Assembly: GCA_943354385.1 (NCBI GenBank)
Contig: CALRBR010000005.1
Location: 1-61,352 of the forward strand
Length of the DNA stretch: 61,352 bases
Direction of reading: 5' to 3'
DNA from: Candidatus Tayloriibacteriota bacterium
Lineage (GTDB): Bacteria > Patescibacteriota > Minisyncoccia > Phycocordibacterales > PALSA-1337
The translations under genes were made by a program, and so were the position numbers. The notes below the pieces were generated by a model that searched no databases, was not told where the DNA came from, and worked only from the letters and a program-made list of their open reading frames with translations. This document shows, piece by piece, positions 18,952 through 50,189 of this stretch; within the stretch, counting starts at the first letter, position 1; every line of letters starts with the position of its first letter.

Positions 18952-19509
18952 CTAAACCTTCTGACTTAAAAATTTCTCGACTTGATGAGCTAAATCCGCC
19001 AAATTGCCATCGTTTCTAATAACCACATCCGCTCGACGCATGCACTCTGAGATATTTTGCTTAGTCGGATCAGACGATGTCATTTCACGTTGCTCATCAG
19101 ATACAAATTTATCAAAAGAAACTTTATCCAAATCACTTTTACGTCCCACAATTCTTTCATAACGTACCTTCTGATCAGAATCAACGGCCAGCAGATAAAA
19201 TACCTTTTGAGCCTGAGCTTTCAGAAAATCAATCTCTCCTGGTGTGCGCACTGATTCAATCACCGCATTCCCCTCTTTTAATGTAGCCTGGTTATAGAGC
19301 TGTTCAATAATATATCTTGGAGAATATGTCTTTCTCAGTTCGTTTGCTAACAGAGTCATCATGTCTCTATTTACCTCTGTATTGCGCTTTTTCAATTCTT
19401 GCGTCAAAAAATCTCGAACAGAATAATGTGTAAAGTTTTTTGTCTTTAGTATAGAAACTATTTCTCCCTTTCCAGCACCAAGGGTTCCAGTAATGCCGAT
19501 AATAATCAT
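18952..19509 (-). CDS. P-loop nucleotide kinase (archaeal dephospho-CoA kinase-like)
   Basis: IIGITGTLGAGK, VIESVR..GE and ADVVIRNDG motifs. Confidence 0.8.
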   Translation of the reverse strand: MIIIGITGTLGAGKGEIVSILKTKNFTHYSVRDFLTQELKKRNTEVNRDMMTLLANELRKTYSPRYIIEQLYNQATLKEGNAVIESVRTPGEIDFLKAQAQKVFYLLAVDSDQKVRYERIVGRKSDLDKVSFDKFVSDEQREMTSSDPTKQNISECMRRADVVIRNDGNLADLAHQVEKFLSQKV

Positions 19510-19581
19510 GTAGATTAGTATAATGCTAGACAAGATTAAAACAAAATATAAACTGGAGCCAATTCTTATTTCTTATTACGG

Positions 19582-19652
19582 AGCCAAATGTGAGAATCGG
19601 ACTCACGTTCCTGCTTTACGAAAGCAGTGTTCTACCACTGAACTAATTTGGC
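19582..19652 (-). tRNA. tRNA-Thr(CGT), atypical T-loop
   Basis: GCCAAAT/ATTTGGC acceptor, CTGCT-TTCGTAA-AGCAG anticodon arm, T-loop TCCGATT. Confidence 0.85.
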
Positions 19653-20098
19653 CTAGTAGCAATCAACAAACGTGCTTCTTGTGCCCTCTTACTTCGAAAC
19701 CGATTCCCTCGGCCCTTAACTCTATTAAGCCCAGAATAAGTAGAGGTCAACGAATCGCAATTTGGACAAATCAAACGAAGATTATCTTCAAGATTATTCC
19801 TCCAGTTACCGTCAATATGGTCAGCGACCAACGGAACCTGTCCGGTCTTTACACTAATCTCAGCCCAGTGACACAAACAACATTTATCACCAAACTTCTT
19901 TCTAAGATATCTTTTAATATGGTTAGAAACAATACCTAATCCTTGCAAACCTTGAATCTTGCCGGATTGCCACTCAAATATATAGGTCAGGTACTGATAT
20001 TCAAGCTGACAAAGATTACTACAGTATTTGTAAGTAGGGCGTGTAGTTTCTTTTTGGCAATTATGACACTTTTTTCTCGGTTTTCTGATATTTGGCAC
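19643..20098 (-). CDS. HNH endonuclease with N-terminal Zn-finger
   Basis: C..C...YCSNLC, CCLC and DHIDGNWRNN..NLRLICPNC motifs. Confidence 0.9.
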   Translation of the reverse strand: MPNIRKPRKKCHNCQKETTRPTYKYCSNLCQLEYQYLTYIFEWQSGKIQGLQGLGIVSNHIKRYLRKKFGDKCCLCHWAEISVKTGQVPLVADHIDGNWRNNLEDNLRLICPNCDSLTSTYSGLNRVKGRGNRFRSKRAQEARLLIATRPN

Positions 20099-20297
20099 AA
20101 GTTAAGTATAACAGACCCACAGACCACTTGCAAAAATAAAAGCGGTTGCTTTTATTTAAAAAAACTGGGTTCGTGTCTACCCGAACCGACCTCCTCCCAC
20201 GGTTCAACCCCGACACCGGTTCCTTCACTTCGTTCGGAGTCCCTCTTATTAGATTTAATGACAAATTTTTGCTAAAGTAAGTTCTCTTTGATTGCGG

Positions 20298-20370
20298 AGC
20301 CGTCGATCGGGATCGAACCGATGACCTCGTCATTACCAATGACGTGCTCTACCAACTGAGCTACAACGGC
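20298..20370 (-). tRNA. tRNA-Thr(GGT)
   Basis: GCCGTTG acceptor, CGTCA-TTGGTAA-TGACG anticodon arm, GGTTCGATCCC. Confidence 0.95.
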
Positions 20371-20399
20371 TTACTTTAAAACAGAACCATGTAACAATA

Positions 20400-20965
20400 C
20401 TACAACTGAGTAATATTTTCAATCGATTCAACAAATCTTGATAGATGTGTACCCACCAAAATCGCATCCGCAGTGACCTCCATATCACCCAAGGTCTCTA
20501 TATTACTCGCCTGACAGAGCCAGCCAGGAAAAATCGCTCGAGCTTCTTTAAATGTTTCTTTCTTCAAACCACCAGTTTTAAGGTCACGACTGTTCCAAAC
20601 CACTTTGAGATTTTTCGGAAGGGCCCGTAACTCTTCCAATGTATTTGGCTCAATCAAACACTTGTCGAGATGTACTTTCGGAATCCGCCCACCACCAATA
20701 CAAAATCTGCACCGCTTGCAACCGCCTTTACCACTGACTCATCGGTCTCATGAATCCCTTTTGCGAGTATAGGTTTCTTTGTCAATGATTTTGTTTTTTT
20801 AATTAACTCAAAAGACCCGTCACAACTCGCATCTGTGTGTATCGAGATTATATCCCCCACTTTTTCGGCAATAACAAACATCTCATCCCAGCTTTTGGTC
20901 GAGATATAGCCCAAGGGAGAACAAGTCTTTACTTCAGCGAGTATGGTAATATTTTTATCCTGGGA
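20400..20965 (-). pseudogene. Frameshifted indole-3-glycerol-phosphate synthase-like (TrpC-fold) gene
   Basis: ILAEVK..SP, ISIHTD, KPILAK and GADFVLVV motifs. A 1-nt frameshift near 20686 continues as RIPKVHLDKCLIEP...NSRDL...DAILVGT. No clear start codon. Confidence 0.7.
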
Positions 20966-21305
20966 GGTAAACGCTGTATATAGTATAAAAAACAAAAAAT
21001 CTATTTGGATGGCTCGACGGGAACCTCTTTCCTTACAGGAACGGTACAGGCTTCGTATCTCATTTTTGCAACACAAAAATGATGTCTGCGAAAATATCTC
21101 AGCTTAAGCTAAGATATTTTCGCAGATTTACCGCTTCGCTCCGACCTATATACTTAGCCTTTTCGAGTCCCTTTCGGAGCTAACGCTCCTCACGAGCGCG
21201 CAAATATAAAACGGCACTGAAAGTCGTTTTATATTTGCGCGACATGGTGGACTGTGTTAGAACTGCGTTTGATGCAATAAATTATACACAGATATACATT
21301 CCTAA

Positions 21306-21728
21306 TTAATTTATTACTACAACGATGCCTTTCATCATTGGGTGAATAGCGCAGTGATAACTGAAAGAACCAGTTTTGGTGAAAGTAAAGCTAAAAAATT
21401 GTCCTGTGGAAAGAGTAGCTGAGCTAAGAATACCTCCCGAATTAGAAGTGATGTTATGGGGAGCCGAACCGTTGTTTGTCCATACAACTTTCGTACCAAC
21501 CTTAATATTTAAGATAGGGGGATTAAATGCGAAATTTTTTATATCAACTGTAACATTTGCAGGAGTAGGTGTTGTGGTGGGCGTAGGATTTGTTGAAATA
21601 GGAGAATTGTTTATATCCGAAGAATTCGTCGGAACTATTGTAAAGTTATTGTTCGAAATCATGTAATATCCCCCGAAACCTAAAATCAACACTATAACTA
21701 TACCTATACCTATTATTGTATTTTTCAT
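21306..21728 (-). CDS. Membrane-anchored cupredoxin (plastocyanin-like)
   Basis: FAFNPP, WTN....H and YHCAIHPMMKG type-1 copper ligands, with a Pro/Thr linker. Confidence 0.9.
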   Translation of the reverse strand: MKNTIIGIGIVIVLILGFGGYYMISNNNFTIVPTNSSDINNSPISTNPTPTTTPTPANVTVDIKNFAFNPPILNIKVGTKVVWTNNGSAPHNITSNSGGILSSATLSTGQFFSFTFTKTGSFSYHCAIHPMMKGIVVVIN

Positions 21729-21766
21729 ATTTTTATTATTAATTTGTAATATTTAATTCTATTAAA

Positions 21767-22255
21767 TTATTTTCCTACTGTACTATTTTTAAATTCATTA
21801 AGCCCTTTTATTTGTAATTCATGCAAGTGAATTGAAGACCTTTTTGATTTAATTAATTGAATTGAATCTTCAACGCTCATTCCCTTACTGATTAAATATG
21901 CTGAAAACAAAGTCGGTGCTCGACCATGACCATTTTTACAATGAATAAAAGTTTTTATCTTATTACTAATTAAAAAATCTAAAAATTTAACCCCTATTTC
22001 AAAATCTTTAGGACTTGGAGAGGTTTTATCTTCAATTGGTAACCACAAAAAATAATCTACCCCGCTTGGAGCATCCGTGCGGTCTTTTTCTAGACTAATG
22101 TCGGCACGTACACCTTTCGATAAAAGTTCTTTAGAAAAACCAACCTGACAACACATATTTGTACCAATAAAAACTTCATTAGTAATTTGATTATAATCAA
22201 AACCAACTTGCCCAGTTAAATGATTAAAAATATCTCTTGGCCCATGTGCAATCAT
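21767..22255 (-). CDS. Dual-specificity protein phosphatase
   Basis: HCKNGHGRA (CX5R) active-site motif. Confidence 0.9.
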   Translation of the reverse strand: MIAHGPRDIFNHLTGQVGFDYNQITNEVFIGTNMCCQVGFSKELLSKGVRADISLEKDRTDAPSGVDYFLWLPIEDKTSPSPKDFEIGVKFLDFLISNKIKTFIHCKNGHGRAPTLFSAYLISKGMSVEDSIQLIKSKRSSIHLHELQIKGLNEFKNSTVGK

Positions 22256-22537
22256 AGTTTCTATTATAACATTTCCAACGTCCAATAGACAATTAACAAA
22301 GGTGCTTCAGGTCAGAACCTAAAAGTCCTTACCATTAAACGGTAAGATATAGAAATTCTCCTTTGCGCGCTCGATGGGACATTCGAAACCTACAGTTTCA
22401 GTACCCCGATTGGATATTTTGTTTCGCTTTGCTCACAAAATATCTCGATCAGGCTTCGAGTCCCACCGAAAGTGAAGACTTTCACTTTCTTCTAGCGCGC
22501 AAATTAAAAACCGCCCCGAAAGGCGGTTTTTTATTTG

Positions 22538-22611
22538 CGCGCTCGATGGGACTCGAACCCACGACCTCTCCCGTGACAGGGGAGCGTTCTAGCCAGCTGA
22601 ACTACGAGCGC
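22538..22611 (-). tRNA. tRNA-Asp(GTC)
   Basis: GCGCTCG acceptor, CTCCC-CTGTCAC-GGGAG anticodon arm, GGTTCGAGTCC. Confidence 0.95.
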
Positions 22612-22893
22612 AATGGATATGAATATAACAGGAAAATGAGCGGAAAGCAATAAATACGGGCCGCGGGTATCTTCCTCTACGAGGACAGTATCCTGTTTGG
22701 ATTTTTTGTTCATGATTACACTTCAAAAAATGCTCAAACAGGCTTCGACCCATACAGGGTCTGTACACCTTTCACTTTTCTCAGACGAAATGTTCAAGGT
22801 CCTGCAGAAGCTCCAGGTTTTCGCTTCTTCAACCTCCACGCAGGCAAAACCCTTTGCCTGCTCCACCGACAAAACTTCACTTCGTTCAATTTG

Positions 22894-22966
22894 TGTCGGC
22901 GGGAGGGATCGAACCTCCGACCCCAGGCTTATGAGTCCTGTGCTCTACCGACTGAGCTACGCCGAC
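22894..22966 (-). tRNA. tRNA with CAT anticodon (probably elongator Met; Ile2 not excluded)
   Basis: GTCGGCG acceptor, CAGGA-CTCATAA-GCCTG anticodon arm, GGTTCGATCCC. Confidence 0.9.
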
Positions 22967-23058
22967 AGTGATTAGTACGATAACACATTTAAAGCAATCT
23001 CTCAACAACCCTAAAACTAAATCCGTCCACCAGAGGTAGACGGATTTAGTTTTACTTG

Positions 23059-23129
23059 TTGCGGGGCCCGGAATCGCACCGGGGACTCAAGGTTATGAGC
23101 CTTGCGAGATACTGCTCCTCCACCCCGCG
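23059..23129 (-). tRNA. Initiator tRNA-fMet(CAT)
   Basis: CGCGGGG acceptor with C1:A72 mismatch and CAT anticodon. A terminator hairpin follows at 23012-23054. Confidence 0.85.
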
Positions 23130-23185
23130 TATTGCCCTTCGTAGAGCTGAATCATCATTATACCGCGGATTTCGAGTCTATGCAA

Positions 23186-23779
23186 CTATATAAACCTAAG
23201 CTCTTCAAAAACAGTCTGGTAAAGTGACAATACTCTTTTAACCTCTCGATTATTCAAAAGTACAGATGACCCTCCGTGTGCCAGACTATTTCGGACTCGG
23301 TGTGCTTCCCACGCATTATCAAGTGTACGTAAATTACCCCGAGTAAGACTTTTCAACATCTCCCCGACACCATCACCTACGGCACCGTCTTTTTCCAATA
23401 TCTCCCCTAATATTATATCAGCCTCAATAATAGCTGACATCCAATCATTAGGGTTTTGTGACCCAGCGTGTTGAGCGATTTTATCCCAGCGCAAAAGATT
23501 ACCGCCGTCCCTAGATTGCTCTACAGCATTGAGCGCATGGTAATCGGCTAAATACTTTTCCTGAACCTGCTCATTAAGACGTCGTAGTTGCAACACAGCA
23601 TAAATGATGCCCGCGAAACAAATTAGGCTAATCAAAATGGTAATCCATCTTGTATGTGGCGCAATAAAATAAAAAACATCAGCCACCCAGTTCCAAAAAC
23701 GTGACAGTGTATTGCCAGTAAAAAACTGATATATCTGAGAGAAAAAATATTCTATGTTTAAAAAAGGAACCTGATTCAT
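23186..23779 (-). CDS. Hypothetical membrane protein
   Basis: One TM segment and W..AIIEAD..L...AWEAH.VRN..AH motif, of a kind seen in CPR genomes. Confidence 0.75.
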   Translation of the reverse strand: MNQVPFLNIEYFFSQIYQFFTGNTLSRFWNWVADVFYFIAPHTRWITILISLICFAGIIYAVLQLRRLNEQVQEKYLADYHALNAVEQSRDGGNLLRWDKIAQHAGSQNPNDWMSAIIEADIILGEILEKDGAVGDGVGEMLKSLTRGNLRTLDNAWEAHRVRNSLAHGGSSVLLNNREVKRVLSLYQTVFEELRFI

Positions 23780-23794
23780 ACAGGTAGAAGTATA

Positions 23795-25222
23795 CTACTT
23801 TTCACCCAAAAAATCTTTCCCTAACGTAAAAAGGATGTCTTCTCGGCCATGCGGGGCTGTCATCTGAATACCGAGTGGCAGGGAGACGCTTCCCTCTTTT
23901 GCAAAACCAGATGGTATCGAAATAGCTGGCATACCAGTCAGGTTTGCAGTAACCGTAAAAATGTCAGCTAGATACATAGAAAGTGGGTCATTGGCTTTTT
24001 CACCAATTTTAAATGCGGGTGTTGGGGTTGTCGGGGTAAGTACTACATCTACCTGAGTAAAGACATCTGTAAAATCTTTGGTGATAGTTTTTCGCACCGC
24101 ATTAGCTTTATTATAATACGCATCATAGTAACCCGATGAAAGAACATAGGTACCGAGCAAAATTCGGCGTCGAGCCTCCTTACCAAACCCTTCGGCCCGA
24201 GTAGCAAAATAATCTTCGATACTATTTTTCCCGTTCACATGTAAACCATATTTTACACCGTCGAAGCGAGCGAGGTTTGAAGAGACTTCAGCGGGCATCA
24301 GCACATAGTATACTGACAACGCATAGCCAATATTAGGAAGTGTAATATCTATCACCGTGTGACCGAGTTTTTTTAAACGAGTTAGAGATTCTTCAAAATT
24401 TACTAACACCTGAGGATCAACGCCTTTTTCCATTGTATGTCTAGGTACTCCTATGGTGAGACTTTTTTTAAGTGGGCTTTTTGCATACGTATCAGATGAA
24501 ATCGTCGTCGCGTCCATCATATCTCTCCCTGCCAAGGTACTAAAAAGTATTTCTATATCCGTCACCGTTTTTGCAAAAGGACCAGCCTGGTCAAGAGACG
24601 ACCCCATCGCAATCAGTCCGTGACGAGAAATCGCTCCGTATGTAGGCTTGAGACCCACCACCCCACAAAAGCTGGCTGGCTGGCGCACCGATCCACCCGT
24701 ATCAGTGCCGAGTGCAACCAGACATCCGTCCATCGCAAGCGCCGCCGCCGATCCACCAGAGGAACCACCAGGAACCCGAGTTAGGTCATGTGGATTATGA
24801 GTAGTACCAAAAGCTGAGTTCTCAGTCGAGCCACCCATCGCAAATTCATCCATGTTTGTACGGCCGAGAAAGATTGCACCAGCATCTTTCAGCTTTTTAA
24901 TCACGGTCGCATCGTAAGTCGCATGATAATTTTCAAGCATTTTCGAAGACGCACTCGCTATTTTCCCTTCGATCAAAATATTATCTTTTATGGCAAAGGG
25001 TATACCGGTAAGAACATCGGCAGTACCATTATCAAAACGTTCTTGAGCTTTTTTTGCCTGGTTTTCAATATCATCAAAGATCTCTAGATATGCATGTACT
25101 TCTGGATCTCTCTTTTTGATATTTTCCACATACGCATTTGCAAGCTCAAGTACGGTATACTTTTTTGCAAGCAAGTCCTCGTGAGCTTTTTTGGCTGTCA
25201 GGTTTTTTAAATCAATCGACAT
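23795..25222 (-). CDS. gatA: Glu/Asp-tRNA amidotransferase subunit A
   Basis: Amidase signature NMDEFAMG, PGGSSGGS and GTDTGGSVRQPA. Confidence 0.97.
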   Translation of the reverse strand: MSIDLKNLTAKKAHEDLLAKKYTVLELANAYVENIKKRDPEVHAYLEIFDDIENQAKKAQERFDNGTADVLTGIPFAIKDNILIEGKIASASSKMLENYHATYDATVIKKLKDAGAIFLGRTNMDEFAMGGSTENSAFGTTHNPHDLTRVPGGSSGGSAAALAMDGCLVALGTDTGGSVRQPASFCGVVGLKPTYGAISRHGLIAMGSSLDQAGPFAKTVTDIEILFSTLAGRDMMDATTISSDTYAKSPLKKSLTIGVPRHTMEKGVDPQVLVNFEESLTRLKKLGHTVIDITLPNIGYALSVYYVLMPAEVSSNLARFDGVKYGLHVNGKNSIEDYFATRAEGFGKEARRRILLGTYVLSSGYYDAYYNKANAVRKTITKDFTDVFTQVDVVLTPTTPTPAFKIGEKANDPLSMYLADIFTVTANLTGMPAISIPSGFAKEGSVSLPLGIQMTAPHGREDILFTLGKDFLGEK

Positions 25223-49376: not shown

Positions 49377-49778
49377 GGGGATGATCGGCCTAGACAGGAG
49401 ATTTCCGTATTTGTGTGCAATGCGGAGCACCGTTAACTCCTAAATCTGACGGAAATCGTAACTGCAAAAACAGTTGCTAAAGCAAAGGCTGTTGTGTCTC
49501 CATTCTATGGAGCCAACAACTTCGCTTTCGCTTACGCAAACGCCTAAGCGACATTGATCGAGCCTTCTCCACGGGGTTTGAATCGGTGTTATATTGTGGA
49601 TTAGAATATATCCCCTTCCCGAGATATGTTCGAAACTAAGGGAATCGGCATTCGTGAGTTTTGCTCATTCTATATCACGAGTTCCTAAATCTGCTCACGC
49701 AGGAAAAATAAGCTACGCATTGTAGACTCACTGATACTCATTTCTTGCACCCGAGTTCGATTCTCGGCATCTCCACCA
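49377..49778 (+). ncRNA. ssrA: tmRNA
   Basis: GGGGATG...CATCTCCACCA alanyl acceptor with G3-U, T-arm CCGAGTTCGATTCTCGG, and tag ORF at 49464-49547 after TAACT. Confidence 0.95.
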
Positions 49779-50189
49779 CTTCGAAATAACTCGCCAGTAT
49801 TCCTGGAGAGTTATTTCTTATGTTTCGATAAATCCCAATAATAATTGACGTCGTGAACAAAGAAAGACTCTCAATCATCACCGAGAAGTGGTAGGACTCC
49901 GCGTAGTACCAATGTAGCGGAGTATCGCACACAGACGCGAAGCGTTCCATTCAATCCATCATTGCCCAAATGGGTTTCCCAGGTGTTCGATAGCGAAGCG
50001 TCCCGGCGTCTCAATAAAATCAGTCAAAATTCTATAAGGTTGCTTCGCTCTATTGGCCTTGGCCGAAGAGAGTACTTCGTTCCGCTCGATTTACATCGTC
50101 GACTTGCTCCTTATAAATCGGCACCCATTGCTTAAAAAAGCCCAATATGCTATAATTCTAAGCCTAAAAGAGTAATAACCCAGCCACCA

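Follow-up and report, generated by a model that had tools for sequence, protein, structure and literature searches.

The described elements of large serine recombinases include phiC31, Bxb1, A118/LI, TP901-1, SCCmec Ccr and TnpX/TndX. Genomic islands and prophages of the Islander type, which depend upon tyrosine integrases, are inserted at the 3' ends of tRNA genes, and for the phage Mx8 (intP/intX) and the integrases of the SSV1 type, which are likewise tyrosine recombinases, the attachment (att) site attP lies inside the int gene. The present work concerns a cassette of 1,120 bp that lies behind the tRNA-Asp(GTC) gene in a stretch of 61,352 nucleotides (hereafter the window), which is contig CALRBR010000005.1 (C5) of the assembly GCA_943354385.1 of a Candidatus Tayloriibacteriota bacterium. 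The genome under study (G000; 662 kb in 24 contigs) has a size and gene content that fit a bacterium of the Patescibacteria (Candidate Phyla Radiation, CPR), and it was compared with two genomes of the same genus (G001 and G002) and with more distant relatives. The locus is best read as several mutually independent insertions stacked upon the last bases of tRNA-Asp, including a recombinase-less cassette that would have been inserted by a serine recombinase acting in trans, and for this reading as a whole we estimate a probability of about 0.7.

The tRNA-Asp(GTC) gene (22537-22611, minus strand; coordinates are those of the window unless another contig is named), which was identified by ARAGORN and is matched by the Rfam tRNA model with 67.4 bits, does not encode CCA, and its last bases form the insertion point. 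It is followed by the hairpin h1, a terminator-like palindrome with 25-nt arms (22491-22515 and 22522-22546, 92% complementary), the outer arms of which are the tRNA-Asp 3' end and an inverted copy of that end. Next in order are a structured element termed unit 1 (22362-22504, minus strand), the cassette (21242-22361, minus strand), a second hairpin h2 (21197-21241) with 17-nt arms (21197-21213 and 21225-21241) that are 100% complementary, and an older structured trailer element, unit 2 (21006-21205, minus strand), which is common to G001 and G002. The cassette, which has no recombinase gene, is bracketed by an 8-bp core that is found at 21234-21241 and again at 22362-22369. The features listed in the original prediction, which was made from the sequence alone, were all present where it had placed them, with the direct copy of the tRNA end at 21006-21022 being weak.

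In both G001 and G002, unit 2 and the hairpin directly follow tRNA-Asp, and the cassette and unit 1 are absent. The identity to G002 is 98% over 21156-21211, which in that genome lies immediately beside its tRNA-Asp, and the identity to G001 is 85% over 21132-21241. Because unit 2 and the hairpin directly follow tRNA-Asp in these genomes, the 1,120-bp cargo is read as an insertion at the tRNA-Asp end, for which the same-genus genomes would present the empty site. Collinearity with the trailers behind the tRNA in G001 and G002 begins at the 8-bp core (21234-21241) and extends leftward via h2 and unit 2; h2, which together with h1 forms direct repeats that are 81% identical and 1,299 bp apart, is interpreted as the displaced original trailer hairpin of tRNA-Asp. 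Further, a comparison of the cargo across relatives, which the original prediction had asked for, showed that it is not invariant: besides G001 and G002, the cassette was found at tRNA-Asp in 0 of 8 further relatives (for one of these, G009, only 5 nt of downstream sequence are available). Structured units are present at tRNA-Asp in two of these eight genomes (G036 and G027), and 5 others have none. The absence of both the cargo and unit 1 in G001 and G002 agrees with the serial insertion at a tRNA 3' end that had been proposed, and in this genome tRNA 3' ends are often followed by stacked insertions. In addition, the loop of G001 and G002 appears in reverse complement in h1 (22491-22546) and h2 (21197-21241), whose stems are the same as in those genomes; it looks as if the hairpin centre has been flipped relative to these two genomes.

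The enzymes with which the far end of the cassette can be compared belong to a family of large serine recombinases that is present in 190 of the 301 genomes of the order, often in several copies, and four other taxonomic families have copies with 96-99% protein identity. Its members have the domains Resolvase, Recombinase and a zinc-ribbon, and their best NCBIfam matches are CcrB and XisF. At 15 of the 30 loci fetched, the 3' end of the recombinase gene overlaps the antisense of a tRNA 3' half, and the last residues of such recombinases (e.g. W-R-R-G-R-D-S-N-P) are read off the T-loop. Among the tails of 120 database homologues, 59 are of this tRNA-antisense type and 31 are of an alternative, attP type with the consensus W-R-C-F-L-D-E-V-R-T-F-F-[DE]-x-N-P, in which the distance between the W codon and a TTCGAA motif is 5 nt greater than in tails derived from a tRNA. 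One serine recombinase is found in G000 (C6:3-668), starting 211 nt behind tRNA-Gln(TTG) and running off the contig. A profile of the alternative tail gives two strong sites in this genome, C3:60521 and C9:18560, both next to displaced trailer units carrying tRNA-Gln or tRNA-Ser arms, and each of these sites marks the far junction of an island, the near ends of the two islands being on C6 and C24. Since the strong far junctions adjoin displaced units, in the same layout as at tRNA-Asp, islands at tRNA ends push older units outward in this genome.

Several further features of these islands may be recorded here. At the tRNA-Gln(TTG) island (C6:1-960), a C-terminal recombinase fragment reads into the tRNA (C6:712-957, plus strand) and the gene start lies inverted beside it (C6:668 to 3, minus strand), and the far junction has its P' arm at C3:60521, beside a restriction-modification cassette and two displaced units with tRNA-Gln arms (C3:60200-66105). 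At the tRNA-Ser(ACT) island, a C-terminal recombinase fragment overlaps the tRNA on C24 (2216-2482), and C9 (18400-18640) has a P' arm beside an orphan unit of family C (see below) with tRNA-Ser-like arms. At least 15 loci (among L113-L135) have a copy of the last codons of the recombinase with the alternative tail upstream of the gene start, on the opposite strand; these copies look like spare inverted attP sites, and the two orientations seen beside tRNA-Gln look like inversion isomers. Inverted-repeat ends such as those of the restriction-modification island on C3 were also considered for the tRNA-Asp cassette, which does not have them.

The far junction of the tRNA-Asp cassette (21234-21309, plus strand) consists of the 8-bp tRNA-end core followed by a half-site of the P' type. 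The open reading frame (ORF) 21235-21309 (plus strand), which starts at the TTTGCGCG remnant (21234-21241), encodes LRDMVDCVRTAFDAINYTQIYIPN followed by a stop codon. When the codon over tRNA positions 74-76 is taken as position 1 of the peptide register, the remnant 16-mer scores -4.6 bits on a matrix of 21 distinct alternative (attP-type) tails, the background being -45.4 (standard deviation 8.4), and in this fixed-register test 38 of the 681,860 16-mers of the genome score as high (p 5.6e-5). With a DNA matrix built from 16 half-sites of other genomes, 621 of 1,321,534 positions score as high (p 4.7e-4). A Pfam search with the 41-residue stop-to-stop ORF 21184-21306 gave no match at E up to 10. 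The homology is decided by the fact that relatives of the tRNA-Asp junction itself turned up at other tRNA-Asp genes. A blastn search of 400 other genomes gave 13 junction matches, and the 4 covering the junction were inspected: in G359, G267 and G322 the identical 8-bp core and the half-site lie downstream of the genome's own tRNA-Asp, and in G275 the core and half-site have no tRNA within 1.5 kb. A metagenome scan with the back-translated motif VDDVRTAFE yielded 60 loci, among which 10 sites on 8 contigs are of the Asp type, each having the core of the tRNA-Asp end immediately ahead of the motif and, as in G000, a tail that closes with I-Y-I-P. The other 50 loci are unrelated and most of them represent one conserved motif, VDDVRTAFEHLVD, inside long ORFs; similarly, the 3 matches of back-translated VDCVRTAFD in genome contigs (Streptomyces, Clostridia) are at chance level.

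The G000 peptide and the copy at the metagenome locus L171 share 16 of 24 residues, as counted from the printed sequences, and the differences in the tail outside the search pattern number 355 at codon position 3 versus 224 and 209 at positions 1 and 2, an excess that points to a coding constraint on the tail. At the locus L165, an Asp-type tail is contiguous with a C-terminal fragment of a serine recombinase (44% identity to the recombinase of L132, E 8e-8), with the start of a recombinase gene at a distance of 1.5 kb. The opposite, tRNA-proximal end of the cassette (22300-22361, minus strand) is also conserved. It consists of a terminator-like hairpin (22327-22347), a T-run and then the motif GTTCTGAC (22311-22318), and the corresponding ends in G359 (L149) and on the metagenome contig OBEQ011320992.1 (L187) resemble it in having a terminator hairpin, a T-run and a GTTCT[GA]AC motif. 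The two conserved ends are not inverted repeats of each other. On OBEQ011320992.1 (L187-L189), three junctions lie in series behind tRNA-Asp, 934 and 753 bp apart, and the genes are oriented like tRNA-Asp; the middle cassette has an ORF of 233 amino acids and the outer one has two small adjacent ORFs, which are antitoxin-toxin-like by eye only. Judged from these sequence comparisons, the far junction is a recombinase-tail/att-site element homologous to the attP-type tails of large serine recombinases that target tRNA ends, and 21242-22361 is read as a complete member of a tRNA-Asp cassette family, bounded by two half-sites and the 8-bp core. The original prediction had likened the remnant peptide to a recombinase C-terminus at an att site, and this likeness is upheld by the fixed-register tests, the Asp-type family and the L165 fragment. 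What is new here is the recombinase-less tRNA-Asp cassette family and its link to the large serine recombinase family.

The folded units on both sides of the cassette are of a different kind. In G000, an inverted copy of the gene's own last 26 nt is found within 450 nt downstream of 18 of the 40 tRNA genes (score at least 10.5), and the same test upstream gives 0/40; the trailers of other tRNAs have an average score of about 7. A direct copy of the own last 16 nt is present 133-316 nt downstream of 8 of the 40 tRNAs. The cores between the unit arms form at least four families, and whole-genome profile searches (nhmmer) gave 32 unit matches, 28 of which lie behind a same-strand tRNA within 1.5 kb and one behind the tmRNA; a partial family-A match (49971-50005, E 2.7e-5) is seen 193 nt behind the tmRNA gene (49377-49778). 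Unit 1 is a 143-bp member of family B (nhmmer E 2.2e-25), with a distal arm (22362-22380) that is an exact 19-bp direct copy of the tRNA end (22534-22552) and a proximal inverted arm (22452-22504) that is a hairpin-interrupted copy of the tRNA 3' end; when up to 3 mismatches are allowed, these are the only 2 places in the genome (662 kb) that match the 19-mer, and its reversed control has 0 matches. In unit 2, the inverted tRNA-end copy is at 21162-21205, the degenerate direct copy near 21006-21022 is backed by the G001 orthologue, and the family-B match (21016-21086, E 1.5e-4) is weak. This is the only unit match that has coding cargo between itself and the tRNA, the other 31 having none. Unit 2 also contains an inserted near-perfect palindrome of 42 bp (21085-21126) followed by a T-run, which has no second copy in the genome and is missing in the orthologue of G001.

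The fold of family B is conserved with compensatory changes. In 16 sequences, 93.2% of the cells are paired versus 70.5% in shuffles, none of 500 shuffles reaching this value, and 21 of the 24 pairs change on both sides; slid controls give 46-59%. As the 16 sequences are paralogues, the compensatory changes cannot be counted as independent of one another. In 14 of 17 units the fold is the more stable on the tRNA-sense strand (summed energy -1125.7 versus -1032.5 kcal/mol), and this strand also contains more G and U, which bears on the strand preference of the fold. No Rfam match to units 1 and 2 or to families A-D was found in 19000-24000 at E up to 1 or at gathering scores over the whole window, and none was found on nine unit loci at E up to 0.1. 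Among G000, G001 and G002, filled and empty unit sites occur at tRNA-Gly(CCC), Leu(TAA), Phe, Cys and Trp, and units are swapped at Lys(TTT) and Ile(GAT). A dispersed repeat of the miniature inverted-repeat transposable element (MITE) or repetitive extragenic palindrome (REP) type was considered and rejected, the copies being tied to tRNA/tmRNA 3' flanks and their terminal arms differing between tRNAs. The units lie directly downstream of tRNA genes, on the same strand, with arms matching the 3' end of their own tRNA, and they are a separate structured tRNA-trailer family and not the cassette recombination sites for which the original prediction had taken them. In the literature accessible without subscription, nothing was found on tRNA-trailer elements or on serine recombinases targeting tRNA ends in Patescibacteria.

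The cargo (21242-22361) has a GC content of 0.322, that of the genome being 0.428 (standard deviation 0.032 in 1,120-bp segments), and 15 of 3,191 such segments have a GC content as low. It encodes, on the minus strand, a dual-specificity protein phosphatase (21767-22255; longest ORF 21767-22285) with an HCxxGxxR motif (Pfam DSPc, 1.2e-14) and a membrane-anchored, amicyanin/plastocyanin-like cupredoxin (21306-21728; Pfam Copper-bind, 2.4e-12) that matches the NCBIfam amicyanin model with 9.1e-17, below the cut-off of the model. The description of an AT-rich cargo of two genes is thus accurate. Homologues of the phosphatase occur in 12 of the 301 genomes of the order and those of the cupredoxin in 51, G000 being included in both counts; the best identity for the phosphatase is 61%. 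Neither gene was found in three other genomes sampled from the same family. At 22 loci with cargo homologues, a tRNA within 1.5 kb and a unit match nearby were each seen in 3 cases, and a recombinase or a clear P' arm in 0; by a rough estimate the 3/22 contexts are no more than chance, and the cargo genes are not tied to the cassette system. Searches with tblastn gave no recombinase fragment in 20900-22540, and no integrase is present at the tRNA-Asp locus. The cassette appears to have its own promoter: directly upstream of the phosphatase ATG is a promoter-like site (22263-22292, minus strand) with TTGTCT, 18 nt and TATAAT with TG, which has 10 of 12 consensus matches but is a consensus match only, in a region that has no excess of such sites over shuffles. 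The terminator-like hairpin separates this site from tRNA-Asp. In G359, TTGACA-type sites were seen by eye, these too being consensus matches only.

The cassette resembles the elements of large serine recombinases in the domains of the recombinase family, in its hybrid junction with a short core, in the empty site found in relatives and in the lack of a long target duplication. Further, the TTCGAA-like motif lies 5 nt further from the core in the element half-site than in the tRNA half-site, an offset that matches the attP/attB geometry of large serine recombinases. However, the target here is the last bases of a tRNA, the site lies inside the last codons of the recombinase, whose tail is changed on insertion, the G000 cassette has no recombinase inside it, and cassettes can stack. 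With islands of tyrosine integrases it has in common the insertion at a tRNA 3' end, the restoration of that end and the displacement of the copy, whereas no integrase of this type is found at the locus, the core repeated by the cassette is only 8 bp and the cassette is about 1.1 kb. As in Mx8 and SSV1, an attachment site is located in a recombinase gene and integration rewrites the C-terminus, but in the present case the recombinase is of the serine type and only the half-site coding for the tail is left, on a cassette without a recombinase. Units 1 and 2 are themselves members of the structured inserts behind tRNA genes, whereas the gene cassette that lies between them has different ends of its own.

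As for integrons, the likeness lies in the small recombinase-less cassettes, their proposed serial capture at a fixed site by a putative enzyme encoded elsewhere and the common direction of the genes. However, the recombinase in question would be of the serine and not the tyrosine type; no IntI-type recombinase lies beside the array, no attC hairpin or attC-type palindrome is found at the cassette end, the cassettes have promoter-like sites of their own and appear not to be promoterless, and the platform is a tRNA 3' end in place of attI with the promoter Pc. One gene cassette is present in G000, and three Asp-type junctions in series are seen on one metagenome contig. Of the integron-like array that the original prediction had envisaged, an analogy survives, while its literal form lacks IntI and attC and is at odds with the promoter-like site.

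In the history that we propose, unit 2 and h2 would be an old trailer that was present before the genus split. A circularisable cassette of 1,120 bp, equipped with a promoter and with a terminator that serves the tRNA, would have been inserted by site-specific recombination, the enzyme being a tRNA-Asp-specific large serine recombinase supplied in trans, and the crossover would have fallen within the 8-bp core common to the tRNA end and the cassette. This would produce the hybrid junction of old trailer, core and P' half-site of the element at 21234-21309. Unit 1, the folded non-coding element of 143 bp with its exact 19-bp tRNA-end copy, would have come to separate the tRNA from the cassette. 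The cassette may have entered at the real tRNA end before the arrival of unit 1, or it may have entered later, at the copy of that end carried by unit 1. Each insertion would rebuild a working tRNA 3' end and displace older material outward. Removal of the cassette would bring the 19-bp arm of unit 1 into direct contact with h2, rebuilding the tRNA end plus hairpin of G001 and G002. Action of the enzyme in trans is the natural reading because the cassette itself has no recombinase gene, and to this extent the earlier suggestion of a recombinase acting in trans stands. Because the recombinase is not in the cassette and none with this tail was found in the genome, the cassette is probably immobile now. 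Further, because the Asp-tail recombinase was not found intact and several genomes with cassettes or units are without the family, either the enzyme acted in trans and is gone, or the cassettes also spread by ordinary recombination.

A number of observations weigh against this account. An intact recombinase with an Asp-type tail was not found in any fetched locus or in G000, all Asp-type sites being in short ORFs of 28-94 amino acids, and at L165 a shift of one base separates the reading frame of the recombinase fragment from that of the tail. G001, G002 and G036 have units and no such recombinase, and of the genomes with Asp-type cassettes, G267 and G322 have no detectable recombinase of the family and G359 has a weak fragment only. 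Only at the fixed position does the likeness of the junction peptide to the Gln/Ser-type tails reach significance, and with a narrow hidden Markov model of attP-type tails the G000 tRNA-Asp peptide was not among the top 25 matches; the excess at third codon positions, about 1.6- to 2-fold, is moderate. Only the filled arrangement, with 0-2 differences, was seen in public metagenome contigs from four studies or runs, and the empty site and the circle joint (about 21240 to 22362, in either direction) were absent, the joints matched there having sides of 21 nt or less and deriving from tRNAs of other organisms. As contigs cannot show rare forms, these results neither support nor refute mobility. 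Lastly, an insertion in G000 and two deletions in G001 and G002 are not formally separable without a rooted tree.

This last point bears upon the explanation in which the cassette and unit 1 are ancestral and were lost in G001 and G002 by recombination between the direct repeats of about 47 bp formed by h1 and h2 with their cores. Deletion between repeats of such identity and spacing is easy, and the extra G000 unit at tRNA-Ile(GAT) is likewise bounded by direct repeats. However, over the shared flanks G002 is closer to G000 (91-98% identity) than is G001 (84-93%), so that two losses would be needed in place of one gain, the GC content of the cassette is 10 points below that of the genome, and the three other same-family genomes sampled yielded neither of its genes. 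We hold this history to be quite unlikely, and even if it were true, the cassette ends would still mark an earlier site-specific insertion. The explanation that dispenses with an enzyme, viz. homology-facilitated illegitimate recombination after DNA uptake, with the tRNA cluster as anchor and a join at the 8-bp GC-rich microhomology, fares slightly better and is regarded by us as unlikely. It would accommodate a far junction that shares only 8 bp with the tRNA end, a cassette without a recombinase and the several cassette- or unit-bearing genomes without a recombinase of the family, and frequent recombination around tRNA genes is suggested by the many tRNAs at which same-genus genomes have different or exchanged trailer units. 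However, a chance join at a microhomology would account neither for the fixed register in which about 70 adjoining bases recur at 10 metagenome sites and in 4 other genomes, nor for the conservation of the near end, nor for the resemblance of the sequence to recombinase tails.

A true integron-like platform, in which a resident tyrosine recombinase captures cassettes and the palindromic units serve as attC-like sites, is in our view very improbable. The cargo is indeed flanked on either side by units that are imperfectly palindromic and have a conserved fold, and serial cassettes are found in one metagenome contig. The sole tyrosine recombinase of G000, a Xer-like protein with the one Phage_integrase match in this genome, also passes the NCBIfam model 'XerA/integron integrase' (232.9 bits versus a cut-off of 220). 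However, this protein is encoded on another contig (C2) and reaches only 131.7 and 72.4 bits with the two IntI models, whose cut-offs are 265 and 435, respectively, 28 of the 32 unit matches lie behind tRNAs and unit 2 alone has coding cargo between, and the cassette ends, which are distinct from the units and not mutual inverted repeats, enclose a promoter-like site of their own. The insertion of a recombinase-less cassette at the end of tRNA-Asp by a serine recombinase acting in trans thus remains the reading that we prefer.

Some other features near the locus and in the relatives are noted for completeness. An IGPS-like (TrpC-like) gene (20400-21076, minus strand) consists of two ORFs with a 4-nt overlap (20654-21076 and 20400-20657), and its Pfam match of 26.8 bits is just under the cut-off of 27. 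Between two tRNA-Thr genes, the ORF 19643-20098 (minus strand), which overlaps the 5' end of tRNA-Thr(CGU), has a weak HNH_3 match (E 0.001, below the cut-off). The tRNA-Thr(GGU) of G001 (L003:77-330) has an interruption of about 200 nt in the anticodon region, which may be an intron; the G000 copy (20296-20370) is uninterrupted. A tRNA-His is not among the 40 tRNAs found by ARAGORN in G000 and is present in G001 and G002; in the G000 assembly it may lie in a gap.

With regard to its wider significance, the locus links folded tRNA-trailer inserts with serine recombinases targeting tRNA ends in CPR bacteria, and the att half-sites defined here are a candidate site pair of a tRNA-Asp-specific serine integrase. 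It is conceivable, although we hold this broader suggestion with less than even confidence, that the ultra-small bacteria of the Patescibacteria/CPR possess a serine-recombinase counterpart of integrons, in which promoter-bearing cassettes of about 0.4-1.1 kb, without a recombinase of their own, are captured serially at the end of a specific tRNA gene by a recombinase supplied in trans. In such a system, the cassette ends would be halves of att sites, one of them doubling as an alternative tail of the recombinase, and the folded units would be gene-less members or landing pads. The inserting recombinase need not stay. The cargo in the present case is a copper protein and a phosphatase, and elsewhere it includes kinase-like and toxin-antitoxin-like genes; cassettes at tRNA ends may be a means by which accessory genes are acquired and exchanged even where a genome measures about 0.7 Mb and encodes very few mobile-element genes.

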